Notes under the pieces: generated by a model
Database searches by the model: none
What the model saw: only the letters and a program-made list of their open reading frames with translations
Told to the model about the DNA's origin: nothing
Translations under genes and position numbers: made by a program
Source: a virus
Taxonomy: Duplodnaviria; Heunggongvirae; Uroviricota; Caudoviricetes
IMG/VR virus record: IMGVR_UViG_2537562194_000022
Span: 1-6,692 of that record
Strand: one strand, 5' to 3'
DNA: 6,692 nucleotides
Shown here: positions 350-5,572 of the stretch, in pieces
Layout: the number at the start of each line of letters is the position of its first letter
Position numbering within the stretch: position 1 is the stretch's first letter

Positions 350-378
350 TTGATTTTTTTATTTGCTGTTTATTAAAA
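350..378 (+). promoter_or_regulatory. Putative sigma70-type promoter (TTGATT -35; AT-rich TATTAA/TTAAAA -10 region)
   Basis: TTGATT at 350-355 followed 15-17 bp later by tattaaaaat (371-380). The -10 is imperfect and lacks the conserved final T, so this is weak. Confidence 0.2.
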
Positions 379-520
379 ATACTACTGCATGGTGAATCCC
401 CCTGTGCGGAGGGGCAATCAGCAACCAGGTATATGTGATAATCGCGGATTCAGGTGCTGATACTGAATTCACCGGGAGGCACCCGGCACCATGCAAGAAA
501 AAGAATGTGCATGCAAACAT

Positions 521-544
521 GCCCCTCTCCGGAGGGGCTTTTTT
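521..544 (+). terminator. Rho-independent terminator
   Basis: 7-bp GC-rich stem gcccctc (521-527) / gaggggc (532-538), 4-nt loop tccg, followed directly by tttttt (539-544). Confidence 0.6.
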
Positions 545-636
545 ATGGGTAAAAAATGCCCGAATGGGTTCGGGCAATAGCATGAGATACTGATATTGTT
601 GTGTTGTTATCGTGTGGATTTTAACCAGGGTTTATC

Positions 637-663
637 AGGCTGCGCAACTGCGTGGCCTTTTTT
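637..663 (+). terminator. Second rho-independent terminator
   Basis: 9-bp stem aggctgcgc (637-645) / gcgtggcct (650-658) with two G-U wobbles, loop aact, then a T-run (658-663). Confidence 0.45.
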
Positions 664-670
664 CATTTCT

Positions 671-717
671 TGGGCTGTAGTCCCCGTGTGTCATTCAGGC
701 TTCCGGACTACAGCCCA
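671..717. promoter_or_regulatory. 13-bp perfect inverted repeat (operator-like or RNA stem-loop) about 45 bp upstream of the esterase start codon
   Basis: tgggctgtagtcc (671-683) is the exact reverse complement of ggactacagccca (705-717), separated by 21 nt. No T-run follows on either strand, so it is not a classical terminator. Confidence 0.4.
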
Positions 718-759
718 CTCCATATCTGATTTAATACACTATCCCGGCCGGGAGGAATA

Positions 760-2253
760 ATGACATTTAAACATTATGATGTTGTCAGGGCGGCGTCGCC
801 GTCAGACCTTGCGGAAAAGCTGACACACAAACTGAAAGAGGGCTGGCAGCCGTTTGGTAGTCCGGTGGCCATAACCCCGTACACACTGATGCAGGCGATG
901 ACAACAGAAGGAGAGCCACAGGTCAGCCCTGCAACTGAGCCGGATTGGTACTACGTCATCGTACTGGCCGGGCAGTCCAATGCCATGGCTTACGGTGAAG
1001 GGCTTCCGCTGCCGGATTCATACGATGCTCCGGATCCGCGCATTAAACAGCTGGCGCGCCGCAGTACAGTGACGCCGGGCGGGGCTGCCTGCAGATATAA
1101 CGATATTATTCCGGCCGACCACTGCCTGCATGATGTGCAGGATATGAGTACGCTGAATCATCCGAAGGCAGACCTGAGCAAAGGGCAGTACGGCTGTGTC
1201 GGCCAGGGCTTACATATTGCCAAAAAACTGCTTCCGTATATCCCGAATAACGCGGGGATCCTGCTGGTACCATGCTGTCGTGGTGGTTCGGCATTCACCC
1301 AGGGCGCGGAGGGGACATTCAGTGCGGACACGGGGGCCAGCCAGGATTCGGCGCGCTGGGGTGTGGGTAAACCGTTATATCAGGACCTGATTGCGCGCAC
1401 TAAAGCTGCATTACAGAAGAACCCGAAAAATGTGTTGCTGGCGGTGTGCTGGATGCAGGGAGAGTTTGACATGAGCGCCGCCACCCACGCACAGCAACCT
1501 GCGCTGTTTACAGCCATGCTGGCACAGTTTCGTGCTGACCTCTCCGTGTTTAACGCGCAGTGCCATGGTGGCAGTGCTGCAGATGTGCCGTGGATTTGTG
1601 GTGACACGACGTATTACTGGAAAAATACATACGCTACCCAGTACGACACCGTGTACGGCGGGTATAAAAACAGGGAGAGTGAGGGCGTTTATTTTGTGCC
1701 CTTCATGACAGACGGTAACGGCGTCAATACCGCCACTAACGCGCCGGCAGAAGATCCGGATATTCCGGCATCAGGATATTACGGTGCGGCATCGAGAACG
1801 AATGGAAACCAGGTATCATCAAACCGCCCGACACATTTCAGTTCATGGGCGCGCAGGAGCATTATTCCGGATCGTCTGGCAACCGCTATTCTGAACGCAG
1901 CCGGGCGCACCTCAGCCTTCATCAGTGGTAAGGCACCGGAAATCAAACCCTCGCCCGGCGGCAACACGCCATCGGGTCCGTCTGCAGATACGTCCGTTCG
2001 CACAATCTCCCTGCTGCCGGCAGCCGGAGAGGCTGCTGCGCAGGGCTGGAGCATTAAGGATGGCGGAATTCAGTTGTCAGATGGTGTATTTAAGATCACC
2101 AAGCAGAGCAATAAAACCTGGTCCCTGACGCATCCGGTGGATGACGCAATTACCCTGCTGACACAGGGCGGCAGACTGACCTGTGTCAGGCGCACTGACC
2201 AACAATCAGTTCGGGCTGGGGATTTATCTGTATACGGATGCTCCCGTTCCTGA
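760..2253 (+). CDS. nanS-p: Prophage sialate O-acetylesterase of the NanS-p type (DUF1737 N-terminal domain plus SGNH/SASA hydrolase domain); 3' end probably frame-shifted and truncated
   Basis: ATG at 760 preceded by gggagga RBS. The N-terminus MTFKHYDVVRAASPSDLAEKLTHKLKEGWQPFGSPVAI is DUF1737-like. VIVLAGQSNAMAYGEG carries the GQSN block of SGNH/sialate O-acetylesterase enzymes. 497-codon frame. Confidence 0.8.
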   Translation: MTFKHYDVVRAASPSDLAEKLTHKLKEGWQPFGSPVAITPYTLMQAMTTEGEPQVSPATEPDWYYVIVLAGQSNAMAYGEGLPLPDSYDAPDPRIKQLARRSTVTPGGAACRYNDIIPADHCLHDVQDMSTLNHPKADLSKGQYGCVGQGLHIAKKLLPYIPNNAGILLVPCCRGGSAFTQGAEGTFSADTGASQDSARWGVGKPLYQDLIARTKAALQKNPKNVLLAVCWMQGEFDMSAATHAQQPALFTAMLAQFRADLSVFNAQCHGGSAADVPWICGDTTYYWKNTYATQYDTVYGGYKNRESEGVYFVPFMTDGNGVNTATNAPAEDPDIPASGYYGAASRTNGNQVSSNRPTHFSSWARRSIIPDRLATAILNAAGRTSAFISGKAPEIKPSPGGNTPSGPSADTSVRTISLLPAAGEAAAQGWSIKDGGIQLSDGVFKITKQSNKTWSLTHPVDDAITLLTQGGRLTCVRRTDQQSVRAGDLSVYGCSRS

Positions 2254-2371
2254 TGGTGTGGCGATGACGGGTACCGGTAATCCGTTCCTGATGTCGTACT
2301 TCACTCAGACCACTGACGGCAGAGTGAATCTGATGCATCACAGGAAAGCCGGAAACACGAACTGGGGGTTC
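2183..2371 (+). pseudogene. Frame-shifted 3' continuation of the esterase gene, ending at the IS junction
   Basis: The +1 frame from about 2180 encodes protein-like sequence (ALTNNQFGLGIYLYTDAPVPDGVAMTGTGNPFLMSYFTQTTDGRVNLMHHRKAGNTNWGF), whereas the 760-frame ends in low-quality sequence (RLTCVRRTDQQSVRAGDLSVYGCSRS). The +1 frame runs into IS sequence at 2372. Confidence 0.4.
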
Positions 2372-2380
2372 ATCGATAGG
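2372..2380. repeat. IS91-like terminal repeat, ori-proximal end (downstream of tnpA)
   Basis: ATCGATAGG, preceded by GTTC at 2368-2371. Confidence 0.5.
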
Positions 2381-2558
2381 AATTTAAATCCCAAAAAGAT
2401 TAAAAAAACACCCAAAAACGGATGTTTATTCAACACTGCCTGCGTGCCATGAGTGCACCGCCGTCAATTAAATGGATCTTATCGATTGATACTGCATATC
2501 ACTGATGGTTTTTTACCCCATTCCCCTGAAAATGGACGCAACCTCTCCGATGCGGCTC

Positions 2559-3791
2559 TCAGCCGCACACCCGCTGTTGCGCCAGTGGCTCATGCATCAG
2601 GACCAGCTCTGTCAGACGGTAGCCCCGCTTCAGCCCCGTAAAACGCATCTGACCTCCGCACAGGATGCACTTCAGCGGGTCAACCTTCAGTAACCGCTGA
2701 TACATCCCTCTCCACCTGATTTGCATCGCCGTCTTTCTCACCGTCTCCGTTATGACGTACACAACATCTTCCAGTAACCGGCGCTTCACCGGACTCAGGA
2801 AACCGTAGTACCTCACCATACGGAACCCCTTATCCGCCACATGCCAGGAGAACCTTTCCATAAACTCATCACCACTCATCACCAGGTATTCTTCCCGTTT
2901 TGTCCGGTGACTGTTGTAACGCAGACCAATTTCATCCTGACCAGCATAGTGCTCCAGACGGCTCATCGGCACCGGCGGTTTTTTCAGGTAAGAGCCGAAG
3001 TACACCGCCACATGTGTGGCGTTATCCATCACCCGGGATACGTTGACATTCCAGCCCCGCCGGTAATGACTGTCCAGGAAGCGATTCCAGTCCCGTTTAC
3101 TGCTTCCTTCTGCTGCCAGCGCATCCGGTATCACCAGGTCCGGATATTTCCGTGACAGTAACCGCGTTATCCGGTAACGCCACATACTCATCACCTTACG
3201 GGCGTAAAAATGAAGGTTTTTCCAGGTGTGGTCTGATGTCACGCCGCCGGTCGTTGTCGACAGGTGAATGTGCGGATGCCACTGCTGGTCACGTCCCCAT
3301 GTGTGGATGACCGTGAATATCCCCGGCACCACATCTGCCTGGCGGCAGATTTCCTGTATCACATCCGCAGCAATGCGGCTCATCTCTGCCAGTAACCACC
3401 GGTTGTGGAACACCAGGGACCAGTACTGGCAGGGAAGTGTGAACACAATATGCTGCCACGGACAGTCGGGAACCAGACTCAGCAGATACTGTATCCACTG
3501 TGCGCCAGCCTTCACTCCGCAGTGCGGGCAGGAGCGACTTTTACACCGGAAGCAGATCTTTTTTATGTGGCTGCAGTCCGGAGATGAACAGCACCACTGT
3601 GTGTACCCCATCAGCGTGGTCCCGCAGGCCATGATTTTTGTCACAGACTCAATGACTACCGGACGCACTGAACCTTCCGGTTGTTTCTCCAGCCAGTTAA
3701 GCCAGCGGTTTCCCTGCTGAAAAATGTCGGCAAAACGGGGAAGCATCAGAAGGGCGGGGGGACTCCGTCCGGCCAGTGAACCGTGCCACAC
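2559..3791 (-). CDS. tnpA: IS91-family transposase TnpA (HUH Y2 rolling-circle transposase)
   Basis: 410-codon frame with a GTG start at 3791. N-terminal Cys-rich zinc-binding region (CCSSPDC...CFRCKSRSCPHC), HUH motif HPHIH, and a YxxxY pair (VYFGSY). The true start may differ. Confidence 0.9.
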   Translation of the reverse strand: MWHGSLAGRSPPALLMLPRFADIFQQGNRWLNWLEKQPEGSVRPVVIESVTKIMACGTTLMGYTQWCCSSPDCSHIKKICFRCKSRSCPHCGVKAGAQWIQYLLSLVPDCPWQHIVFTLPCQYWSLVFHNRWLLAEMSRIAADVIQEICRQADVVPGIFTVIHTWGRDQQWHPHIHLSTTTGGVTSDHTWKNLHFYARKVMSMWRYRITRLLSRKYPDLVIPDALAAEGSSKRDWNRFLDSHYRRGWNVNVSRVMDNATHVAVYFGSYLKKPPVPMSRLEHYAGQDEIGLRYNSHRTKREEYLVMSGDEFMERFSWHVADKGFRMVRYYGFLSPVKRRLLEDVVYVITETVRKTAMQIRWRGMYQRLLKVDPLKCILCGGQMRFTGLKRGYRLTELVLMHEPLAQQRVCG

Positions 3792-4111
3792 TCCGGGCAG
3801 TACATGCCGCCGGCGCTGATACCGGCAAGAATGGTCGCAAACTCCCGCTCCGTGCAGCGGGCTATTTCAGGATACCCTTCGTCATCAACACGTACAAACC
3901 AGAAGACCAGCTTTTTGTTTCCGGCATCCACAAAGAAGGGAATATTCAGGTCTGCGCAGCACTCAACGGCATCGTCAAAATTATCAAAGCGCAGAGCTTC
4001 TGCGTCTTCTTCGTCAAAGAAGTCATCGTCGTGAAGCTTCACGACATAGCGGGGAAGTTTGCTTCTTTGAGGGGCAGGTTTTCGTTTACGGGGTTTAGCT
4101 GAACGGGACAT
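3746..4111 (-). CDS. IS91 ORF121-like small protein (function unknown)
   Basis: 121-codon ORF with ATG at 4111, directly upstream of tnpA and overlapping its start by 46 bp. This length and position match the ORF121 of IS91. Confidence 0.75.
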   Translation of the reverse strand: MSRSAKPRKRKPAPQRSKLPRYVVKLHDDDFFDEEDAEALRFDNFDDAVECCADLNIPFFVDAGNKKLVFWFVRVDDEGYPEIARCTEREFATILAGISAGGMYCPECGTVHWPDGVPPPF

Positions 4112-4129
4112 ATAACTACCTGAAAGACA

Positions 4130-5572
4130 ATGATATTGTCTGTTTTTATAACGGTAATTTCAGGCCATGACAAGCCGCAGCCGCCAGGCTGCCTACTCGA
4201 TGATAAACAGCAGAGCGCCCTGACAAAAACAGAACGTGAGCTGGCCCTGTCCCGACTGAAGGGGGAGGAAAAAGAGCGTGTCCGGCTGGGGTATGCGGCG
4301 GATGACCTTGGTTTTGTGGGGGATTCGTATCAGGAGGCGAGACAGCGTTATATCAGTAATGCTCTGGAAGCCTGGCGTAATAACGAGGCGAACAAACCTA
4401 AATCCCGGGGTGGAAAATCAGAGACGGAAAAAGCGGAAGACAGTTTTTCCCGGCTACTGAAGCAGCAGAAAGAGCAACTGGCACTGGCCGGTCAGAACAC
4501 GGAGCTGGCGAAGCTGAAGTACCAGACAGCGCTGGGTGAACTGAAAACCCTGTCGGAGATACAGAAGCAGGAACTGCTGCGTAACGCGGCCCTGATTGAC
4601 CAGCAAAAAATCCGGGAACAGTTGCGATCCCGGGAAGAGACCCTGAAGAATGATAATGTGGCTGCGCGTGCATCAAATGAAGCCGAACTGCTGGGGTACG
4701 GGCAGGGAGAACGAGCCAGGGAACGCATGCGGGAGTTGCAGCAGATCCGCGACAGCTTCCGCCAGAAGGATGCGGACCTTCAGTCTCAGTATCAGACCGG
4801 GGATATCAGTGAGGATTTTTACAGACAGGCACGGGCACAGAACGCGCAGTATCTGAGCGAACGCCTTAAGGACCAGGCAGCCTTTTATGCCGAATCGGAT
4901 GCGCAGCGTGCGGACTGGCAGAAAGGCTTGCAGGAGGGGCTCAGTAACTGGGTGGACAATGCATCCGATTACGCTTCACAGGCAGCACAGCTTGCGACGG
5001 AGGGTATCTCAGGGATGGTGAATAACATCACGGAGATGCTGAACGGAAACAAAGTGGAATGGCGCAACTGGGCCTCATCCGTACTGCAGGAAATCTCAAA
5101 AGTTCTTATGAATGCCGCGATTGTCAACGGAATTAAGACGGCGGCAAACGGTATGTCCGGTGCGGGAGGATTTCTCGGCAGCATTGGTGACTGGCTGGGC
5201 GGGGCGGTGGCCAATGCAAAAGGCGGCGTGTATACCTCGGCAAACCTGAGTGCGTACAGCAACAGTATTGTGGATACGCCCACGTACTTTGCCTTTGCAA
5301 AAGGGGCGGGGCTGATGGGGGAGGCCGGACCTGAAGCCATTATGCCTCTGACGCGGGCGGCGGATGGCTCGCTGGGTGTGCGAGCGGTGGGCAGTATGAA
5401 CGGTAGTGCGGGTCTGGTGTATTCCCCGGTCTACCATATCGCCATTCAGAATGACGGGACTAATGGCCAGATAGGGCCGGAAGCTGCGGGCAGCCTTGTG
5501 CAGCTGATTGACCAGCGGGTGCAGGCGGTGATGCTGTCCATGCGACGTGACGGAGGAATGCTGAGTGGCTGA
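4130..5572 (+). CDS. H: Tail tape-measure protein (lambda gpH-like), C-terminal portion only; 5' end removed at the IS junction, first 24 codons are IS-derived
   Basis: Coiled-coil Q/E/R/K-rich middle, Gly-rich segment, and a C-terminus (VYHIAIQNDGTNGQIGPEAAGSLVQLIDQRVQAVMLSMRRDGGMLSG) that matches the lambda gpH C-terminus (NDGTNGQIGP...MRDGG). Phage-derived sequence begins at 4202, in frame. About 457 aa remain against about 850 for a full gpH. Confidence 0.85.
   Translation: MILSVFITVISGHDKPQPPGCLLDDKQQSALTKTERELALSRLKGEEKERVRLGYAADDLGFVGDSYQEARQRYISNALEAWRNNEANKPKSRGGKSETEKAEDSFSRLLKQQKEQLALAGQNTELAKLKYQTALGELKTLSEIQKQELLRNAALIDQQKIREQLRSREETLKNDNVAARASNEAELLGYGQGERARERMRELQQIRDSFRQKDADLQSQYQTGDISEDFYRQARAQNAQYLSERLKDQAAFYAESDAQRADWQKGLQEGLSNWVDNASDYASQAAQLATEGISGMVNNITEMLNGNKVEWRNWASSVLQEISKVLMNAAIVNGIKTAANGMSGAGGFLGSIGDWLGGAVANAKGGVYTSANLSAYSNSIVDTPTYFAFAKGAGLMGEAGPEAIMPLTRAADGSLGVRAVGSMNGSAGLVYSPVYHIAIQNDGTNGQIGPEAAGSLVQLIDQRVQAVMLSMRRDGGMLSG
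4192..4201. repeat. IS91-like terminal repeat, ter-proximal end (upstream of ORF121)
   Basis: cctactcgat; its reverse complement ATCGAGTAGG matches the left end with one indel. Confidence 0.5.

Follow-up and report, generated by a model that had tools for sequence, protein, structure and literature searches.

Q-dependent expression of late genes is established lambdoid biology. Stem-loops that protect messenger RNA are equally well known, and include the 5′ hairpin of ompA, the intercistronic repetitive extragenic palindromic (REP) and malE-malF stabilisers, and the RNase III sites between T7 genes. Here, we analysed positions 637–759 of a 6,692-nt stretch of viral DNA (hereafter, the window; IMG/VR record IMGVR_UViG_2537562194_000022, Caudoviricetes). 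This studied stretch contains an intrinsic terminator, termed T2, a second hairpin, termed hairpin 2, and the ribosome-binding site (RBS) of an esterase gene, and it lies immediately beside a pair of convergent small RNA (sRNA) genes. Such pairs have been described by Tree et al. 2014 (PMC4104026), according to whose text they sit between a moron coding sequence and a conserved open reading frame (ORF), downstream of the Q-antiterminated PR′ promoter, with STnc100, EcOnc27 or PasD on the late strand and AgvB, AsxR or EcOnc03 on the other. The esterase is of the nanS-p type, and nanS-p has been reported as one of the late genes with the strongest induction by norfloxacin (PMC8065619).

The position of the pair in the window was the same as that described in the text of Tree et al.: both sRNAs were identified by Rfam, and the studied stretch starts 25 nt past the AgvB start. 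As the best explanation of the whole, which we consider to have about an even chance of being correct, we propose that the stretch is the 3′ boundary of a convergent-sRNA-pair module in a lambdoid late operon, joined to the nanS-p leader. The accounts of convergent sRNAs consulted here, including that of Tree et al., describe in their text the sRNAs themselves and not T2, the overlap of T2 with the anti-sRNA promoter, or hairpin 2. Relative to the texts consulted, three points were new, namely this overlap, the homology of T2 to the terminator of an sRNA in another leader type, and the conservation of hairpin 2 as an RNA structure.

T2 (637–663, plus strand) consists of a 9-bp stem (637–645/650–658) with the loop AACU and a U-run at 659–663. 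Its DNA, AGGCTGCGC/AACT/GCGTGGCCT at 637–658, gives nine pairs, including six G-C and two G-U pairs, and is followed by TTTTT at 659–663 and then by CATTT. The fold of −14.9 kcal/mol (z = −4.3) was equalled by only one of 200 shuffles. T2 therefore has what defines an intrinsic terminator, that is, a GC-rich stem of at least 5 bp, a loop of 3–8 nt and an adjoining 3′ U-run. It was one of seven terminator-like sites within positions 1–2400, compared with 2.5 ± 1.7 in shuffled sequences. A terminator role on the minus strand was rejected; no U-run is present there, and the fold was worse (−10.1 kcal/mol, z = −2.0).

For comparison, we used 80 viral contigs encoding the N-terminus of the esterase, together with further loci found with a DNA pattern whose anchors were T2 and the 5′ arm of hairpin 2. 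The leaders fell into six types. Types A (that of the window), B, C and F have T2 followed by hairpin 2; type D has a T2 homologue followed by a weak, different hairpin, and its protein start differs (MSIK...); type E is AT-rich and has neither T2 nor hairpin 2. The 82 protein-anchored esterase loci were distributed as 29 of type A, 10 of type B, 3 of type C, 36 of type D and 4 of type E. An alignment was built from 39 variants of types A, B, C and F. A further esterase search with one genome per species gave 12 loci, all from Escherichia, Shigella or Proteus, among which there was no additional lineage with hairpin 2; those loci that had both the DUF1737 N-terminus and a typed leader (L084, L090 and L094) were of type D or E.

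In the 39 aligned variants, the core stem of T2 was paired in 98% of cells, all one-sided changes were to G-U, and the same core stem was recovered independently by RNAalifold. The U-run ranged from U5 to U8 in the relatives. Type B had a weaker outer helix, whereas the stem of type F had been rebuilt, had decayed to −6 to −7.5 kcal/mol and had its U-run displaced. In type D, the body of an STnc100-like RNA, putatively PasD, is followed after approximately 60 nt by GGCTGCGCAT(T/G)GCGC(A/G)GCC and U8, which is a hairpin homologous to T2. Since this homologue is the sole terminator behind the STnc100-like RNA, T2 is in type D the sRNA's own terminator. In the window type, a cassette made up of another terminator, T1, and the convergent anti-sRNA separates the sRNA body from T2. 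Weak matches on T2 in a permissive Rfam search were all to 3′ terminator ends of sRNA models, including positions 162–206 of STnc100. From these sequence features, we concluded that T2 is a canonical and conserved intrinsic terminator of the plus strand, at which transcription would be expected to end in vivo.

The terminators that Q-modified polymerase reads through in lambdoid late operons (tR′ of lambda, 933W and H-19B) share with T2 a late-strand U-run behind a GC-rich stem and tetraloop, as well as a location downstream of Q. T2 differs from tR′ in that it is not promoter-proximal: moron and sRNA genes precede it, approximately 3.5 kb separate it from Q, and it would also serve as a promoter for the opposite strand. 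Between Q and the lysis genes, it is one among many such sites. The Q-to-lysis interval of the intact relative L001 (3000–12500) contained 20 terminator-like sites, mostly on the late strand, against 8.6 ± 2.7 expected.

The promoter in question is a candidate sigma-70-type promoter of AgvB at 618–647 on the minus strand. It consists of a −35 TTGCGC at 647–642, an 18-nt spacer and a −10 TAAAAT at 623–618; the AgvB start, C612, is 6 nt past the −10, and an A-run (663–659) lies just upstream of the −35. T2 on the plus strand thus overlaps both the −35 and the spacer. The pair of hexamers, the spacing within 16–18 nt and the placement relative to the mapped start are those of a promoter of this class. 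The −10 matches the consensus at five of six positions, and a scan for the −35/−10 motif gave one match against 0.01 expected. The 5′ end of AgvB, CGATAAC..., agreed with the AgvB sequence and with the start mapped by rapid amplification of cDNA ends in the text of Tree et al. 2014 (PMC4104026). The position relative to this published start suggests that 618–647 is the working AgvB promoter.

Among unique variants of types A, B, C and F, 54 of 55 had the promoter motif and, within 95 nt, a short minus-strand sRNA with its own terminator; the 17 variants of types D and E included no such case. The minus-strand RNA was AgvB, AsxR, an EcOnc03-like RNA or, in types B and F, another RNA of approximately 75 nt. 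TGCGCAA was invariant in all 39 aligned variants, and TTGCGCA was retained in type F even though the T2 terminator had decayed there. Judging from the sequence, 637–663 appears to be bifunctional, serving as a terminator of the plus strand and as the −35 and upstream region of the anti-sRNA promoter, both of which would be used in vivo. A comparable arrangement is promoter-terminator coupling, in which, according to the part of the text consulted (bioRxiv 10.64898/2026.08.19.745784), one short segment acts as the terminator of one unit and as a promoter element of its neighbour, as T2 would. The RNA of approximately 75 nt replaces AgvB at about 1290–1375 (minus strand) of locus L019 and at the matching site in loci of types B and F. 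It comes with a −10 TATTAT, a −35 TTGCGC inside T2 and its own terminator, GCCCGCG...CGCGGGC with a T-run, and it gave no Rfam match at the gathering level.

Downstream of T2, hairpin 2 occupies 671–717 on the plus strand of the leader, with a perfect 13-bp stem (671–683/705–717) and a 21-nt loop. A preliminary description, which was made from the sequence of the window alone, had noted a second terminator-like hairpin at 637–663, had reported a 13-bp perfect inverted repeat with a 21-nt spacer at 671–717, had called a repeat of this length unlikely by chance and had suggested that it could be either an operator or an RNA stem. The first hairpin is real, as described above for T2, and the repeat was found exactly as given. 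It was the longest perfect inverted repeat in the window with a spacer of 3–40 nt, and the longest in 60 dinucleotide shuffles was 11 bp. Folded as RNA, it reached −28.0 kcal/mol (z = −5.8), which none of 200 shuffles equalled. As shown below, the evidence favours the RNA stem and not the operator.

In types A, B, C and F, hairpins of −17 to −30 kcal/mol stand at this position, with loops that are 21–32 nt long and largely different in sequence among lineages, while the stem remains paired. In the alignment, 88.7% of stem cells were paired, against 30–48% when the partner columns were slid. Four of the 14 stem positions changed on both sides (C-G/U-A, U-A/C-G, A-U/G-C and C-G/U-A). The cells that departed from Watson-Crick pairing comprised 45 G-U cells, of eight column types, and only five A-C cells; this excess indicates that pairing is maintained in the RNA of the plus strand and not in that of the minus strand. 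These both-side changes in diverged relatives and the strand-specific G-U pattern are the signs by which we recognised a structured RNA. A terminator role of hairpin 2 on the minus strand was rejected, as no U-run follows the hairpin on that strand.

The same pattern bears on the suggestion that the 13-bp repeat is a protein site in the DNA, namely an operator or activator site for the esterase or for the AgvB promoter, with respect to which it would lie at −60 to −105. The dyad is perfect in the window variant, and the hairpin and the convergent-sRNA promoter are found together in types A, B, C and F, whereas types D and E have neither. Nevertheless, the asymmetries between the arms were overwhelmingly G-T, which pairs only in plus-strand RNA (45 cells against five A-C), and the arms changed by paired substitutions, which a protein reading the sequence would not need. 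The spacer is long and variable (21–32 nt), no further copy of the arm was present in 14.5 kb of an intact relative, and a consensus scan detected no plus-strand promoter nearby to be controlled. The lambdoid operators of the OR/OL type also have dyad symmetry; however, they are dyads of approximately 17 bp with almost no spacer, are set in groups beside a promoter and are conserved in sequence, whereas hairpin 2 has a spacer of 21–32 nt, is present as a single copy and accepts RNA-compatible substitutions. We therefore regard a DNA site of this kind as very improbable, and an operator or transcription-factor dyad at 671–717 was rejected on the variable spacer, the changes in the arms, the lack of copies and the lack of a plus-strand promoter.

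Whether the stem is kept by selection was weighed against the reading that hairpin 2 has no function and is a relic of recombination or of a moron junction, persisting since the modules are young and are spread by recombination. Mosaic junctions indeed occur exactly here; locus L020 fuses a C/B-type T2 to an A-type hairpin, foreign DNA is present in the hairpin 2 loop of L204 and L205, types D and E have no hairpin, and the lineages are few and closely related. What a mere relic would not readily produce is the way in which the stem has been kept. The arms of types A and C are nine substitutions apart and nevertheless retain 13 of 13 pairs (through three double changes and three G-U pairs), an outcome reached in 0.17% of neutral simulations. 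Type F has replaced the inner stem with U-G, U-A and C-G pairs, and L149, which lost the 3′ arm, has gained a new 7-bp stem, GGCUGCA/UGCAGCC. The loops have diverged and the stems have not. A functionless relic is accordingly a rather improbable account. On this comparative evidence, the view that we favour is that 671–717 forms an RNA hairpin in the esterase leader and is not an operator.

Known families of structured RNA gave no indication of a role. With Rfam 15, a search of the whole window found no family over 664–760 at the gathering level or at E ≤ 1, and a permissive search yielded only matches of at most 16 bits, which were mostly generic terminator ends on T2. The alternative, mutually exclusive pairing expected of an attenuator or a riboswitch was present in neither the minimum free energy (MFE) fold nor the centroid fold, and no riboswitch matched in Rfam. 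Furthermore, since hairpin 2 lies downstream of the U-run of T2, it cannot compete with T2 during transcription or act as an antiterminator, and it is present only in read-through RNA, that is, in late, Q-dependent RNA. A plus-strand promoter that would make hairpin 2 the 5′-terminal stem-loop of an esterase-specific transcript was sought by consensus scan and by eye, and none was found.

We considered translational control as one possible function, in which the pyrimidine-rich loop would pair with the Shine-Dalgarno (SD) and AUG region (748–765) as a pseudoknot and repress or time the translation of the esterase. The relevant elements of the loop are an anti-SD CUUCC at 700–704 and, in the window variant, an anti-start UGUCAUU at 689–695. 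An inverted-repeat scan showed that 689–706 is 72% complementary to 748–765 over 18 nt, and RNAduplex gave −21.7 kcal/mol for the window variant compared with −16.0 ± 2.8 when the upstream sequence was shuffled (p = 0.03). Outside the SD, no part of the leader is better conserved than CTTCCGG, which also occurs in type D, where it pairs with CGGGAG in the MFE fold, and the loops of type C hold CUCCUC and CUCCUU. The pairing did not generalise, however. In nine of the 11 other variants, the duplex between upstream sequence and RBS was clearly no better than that of composition-matched shuffles (p = 0.10–0.56), and in the type D locus L094 it was borderline (p = 0.05). Types C and F have no anti-start, and many type B variants carry a mismatched one (TGCCAT opposite ATGACA). 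Of the seven anti-SD bases, two are tied up in stem pairs, and the predicted pairing probability of the SD was only 0.4–0.7 in all types. Loop-RBS pairing was thus rejected as a general mechanism, being nominally significant in the window variant only, with L094 borderline and the other ten variants not significant, and we consider translational control by this route to be quite unlikely. Doubtful to much the same degree is a broader proposal, that hairpin 2 is an unrecognised cis-regulatory RNA whose clamped anti-SD loop pairs with the esterase RBS or binds a factor in trans (the STnc100/PasD sRNA or a protein) and forms a second, post-transcriptional gate on the esterase and the lysis genes that follow, one that does not depend on Q. 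If it were true, then, together with the overlap of T2 and the AgvB promoter, this stretch of 130 nt would switch off the anti-sRNA and switch on the late message.

A second group of functions would make hairpin 2 an active signal, either an entry site for RNase III or RNase E or, together with the linker behind it, a contributor to a third, Rho-dependent barrier against polymerase that has not acquired Q. This linker (718–742, plus strand), which runs from hairpin 2 to the RBS, is AU/C-rich, G-poor and unpaired in the MFE and centroid folds. A stable stem next to an AU/C-rich single-stranded tract, loops that are C/U-rich in types B and C, and established precedents all accord with such a signal: in lambda tR1 the rut site is split by the boxB hairpin, and RNase III cuts T7 and lambda transcripts at intercistronic hairpins. 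On the other hand, a stem of 13–14 bp is short for RNase III, and the G-poor tract before the strong RBS, at only about 25–30 nt, is short for the loading of Rho. We judge an active signal unlikely.

By elimination and from its position, the most likely role of hairpin 2 is that of a passive structural element, a nuclease barrier or a processing boundary, at the 5′ edge of the esterase-lysis message. Like the protective stem-loops of ompA, malE-malF and T7, it is stable, lies in an untranslated part of a polycistronic message and adjoins an AU-rich single strand. It has no sequence similarity to REP, and the likeness to protective stem-loops is one of position and stability only. The loop of hairpin 2 is also the starting point of a 19-codon minus-strand ORF (MTHGDYSPRNEKRPRSCAA), which runs from an ATG at 694–692, behind GGAAG, through T2 to a stop at 637–635. 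Such an ORF would account for the anti-SD and anti-start motifs. In types A and B the frame is open and has an ATG; it was rejected as a gene, as types C and F have no start codon for it, and is probably spurious.

The last element before the esterase start codon, at 760, is the RBS. The preliminary description had pointed to a palindrome at 744–753 overlapping an SD at 749–754, and had suggested that the palindrome could occlude the RBS. Both features exist, each displaced by one base: the palindrome CCCGGCCGGG is at 743–752 and the SD GGGAGG at 750–755. GGGAGGA was invariant in the 39 variants, 4 nt before the ATG, and CCC was found 4–6 nt upstream of GGG in all types. Occlusion fared worse. 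The window contained six perfect 10-bp palindromes compared with 6.8 ± 2.4 in shuffles, and the only hairpin offered by this one, UCCC/GGGA, had −5.2 kcal/mol (z = 0.02), with 93 of 200 shuffles as good. No pair of the RBS palindrome changed on both sides, departures simply broke pairs, RNAalifold predicted no hairpin, and in one lineage CCCGGCCGGG was replaced by CCCGGAAAGGGG. With its stability at the level of chance and no covariation, an RBS-occluding hairpin at 743–755 was rejected. The RBS is an ordinary strong SD, and the palindrome is incidental.

The preliminary description had further taken the terminator, the repeat and the palindrome together as a gate on the esterase, possibly dependent on antitermination, while naming absence of the repeat from orthologous genes as the observation that would count against it. 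Hairpin 2 was missing from 40 of the 82 esterase loci, namely those of types D and E, and as it is present at only about half of the orthologous esterase genes, the gene does not require it. The arrangement is normal lambda-like late-operon architecture and not a special gate. A dependence of the esterase on Q antitermination is plausible and would fit the context, because the gene lies downstream of the Q antiterminator in intact relatives and nanS-p is induced among the late genes. Two features had escaped that description altogether, AgvB on the opposite strand, with its putative promoter in the DNA of the second terminator, and the nature of the esterase as a truncated remnant.

Here, we propose a model for the stretch by combining the above results. 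In the lysogen, T2 would back up T1 (521–544) for transcription of the plus strand, and the two terminators would prevent transcripts of the STnc100 or moron promoters from crossing AgvB in antisense and entering the esterase or, where the phage is intact, the lysis genes. Upon induction, polymerase that starts at PR′ and is modified by Q would pass T1 and T2, leading to expression of the esterase with the late genes. The DNA of T2 would double as the upstream half of the anti-sRNA promoter, whose −35 would be in the 5′ arm and loop and whose A-tract would be the complement of the U-run, and late read-through should interfere with the transcription of AgvB. Hairpin 2, occurring in read-through transcripts only, would separate the variable moron/sRNA part from the esterase-lysis message and would also shield the RBS from the variable upstream sequence.

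On one side of the region is virulence cargo (stx or other morons, together with the sRNAs STnc100/PasD and AgvB/AsxR), and on the other are the esterase-lysis genes. If T2 is both a backstop terminator and the bearer of the anti-sRNA −35, lysogens would produce AgvB-type sRNAs, late read-through should shut them down, and the dual role would explain the strong conservation of so short a stretch. Hairpin 2 is an unannotated conserved RNA structure, of relevance to the mapping of late-transcript processing or of nanS-p expression. The accepted picture of Q-dependent late expression is unchanged.

Several points weigh against this explanation. The covariation in hairpin 2 comes from approximately four lineages and about five or six independent events, its RNAalifold covariation term is only −0.34 kcal/mol, and type B has one or two U-U mismatches within the stem. 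No result of our analysis points specifically to a stabiliser or insulator role, and, as types D and E do without it, hairpin 2 appears from the comparison of leaders to be dispensable for the expression of the esterase. Termination at 663, read-through by Q and the use of the −35 are steps that we infer; the −35 TTGCGC matches the consensus at only three of six positions and was hence missed by a generic promoter scan. In the window itself, the role of the leader for the esterase and lysis genes is vestigial, as only a truncated esterase and no lysis genes are left there.

The window represents the late part of an E. coli prophage that is lambdoid, Stx-phage-like and defective, and its order is a TerB/DUF3927 moron, STnc100, AgvB, the studied stretch and a nanS-p-type esterase that an IS91-family element has truncated. 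On the 5′ side of the two sRNA genes are the end of a TerB-like ORF and a DUF3927 ORF. The STnc100/PasD-family sRNA gene (361–550, plus strand) matched Rfam RF02076 with 148.1 bits (gathering threshold 47, E = 7e-34). T1, at 521–544 on the plus strand, is its own terminator and was found by the terminator scan as GCCCCTCTCCGGAGGGGC followed by T6. AgvB, an anti-sRNA (anti-GcvB) convergent with STnc100, runs from 612 to 551 on the minus strand (RF02702, 96.5 bits against a gathering threshold of 56); all its positions were identical to the RF02702 consensus, and its own terminator is at 576–557 on the same strand. The esterase ORF (760–2253, plus strand; DUF1737 and SASA domains, Pfam PF08410 and PF03629) encodes 497 amino acids, compared with 617–648 in full-length relatives. 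An IS91-family transposase follows at 2559–3791 on the minus strand, and the element (region 2254–4130) joins the esterase remnant directly to the C-terminal part of the tape-measure gene (from 4130) and then to minor tail genes. The truncated esterase followed by the transposase and this tape-measure part shows that the prophage is defective; its lysis, terminase and head genes are gone, while STnc100 and AgvB are retained. Intact relatives have the gene order Q antiterminator, methylase and moron genes, sRNAs (STnc100 and AgvB), esterase, and holin and lysis genes. Within the IS91 transposase gene, at 3280–3353 (minus strand), Rfam gave a weak hit for the 2dG-II purine riboswitch aptamer (21 bits against a gathering threshold of 60, E = 0.25), which is almost certainly due to chance.

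The genomes nearest to the window were those of E. coli 95NR1 and 95JB1. A 151-nt segment surrounding the studied stretch occurred at a minimum of 1,696 sites in no fewer than 624 of the 5,426 complete genomes of E. coli, often in multiple copies. An octamer, CCGGGAGG, is present twice in the window, at 472–479 in a hairpin of STnc100 and at 748–755 in the SD region of the esterase, and the anti-SD-like CUUCCGG of hairpin 2 (700–706) could pair with either copy. In L001, a terminator-like site at 9368–9396 lies between the esterase and the holin, the reported place of the PasA/PasC sRNAs. Finally, copies of the STnc100 family, scoring 120–172 bits, were repeated upstream of the type F esterase leaders of two loci: L204 has one copy at 4984–5196 and a tandem array of four at 6956–7937, and its foreign DNA lies within the loop of the first hairpin 2 copy, while L205 has three tandem copies (12512–12973) and one at 13443–13655.

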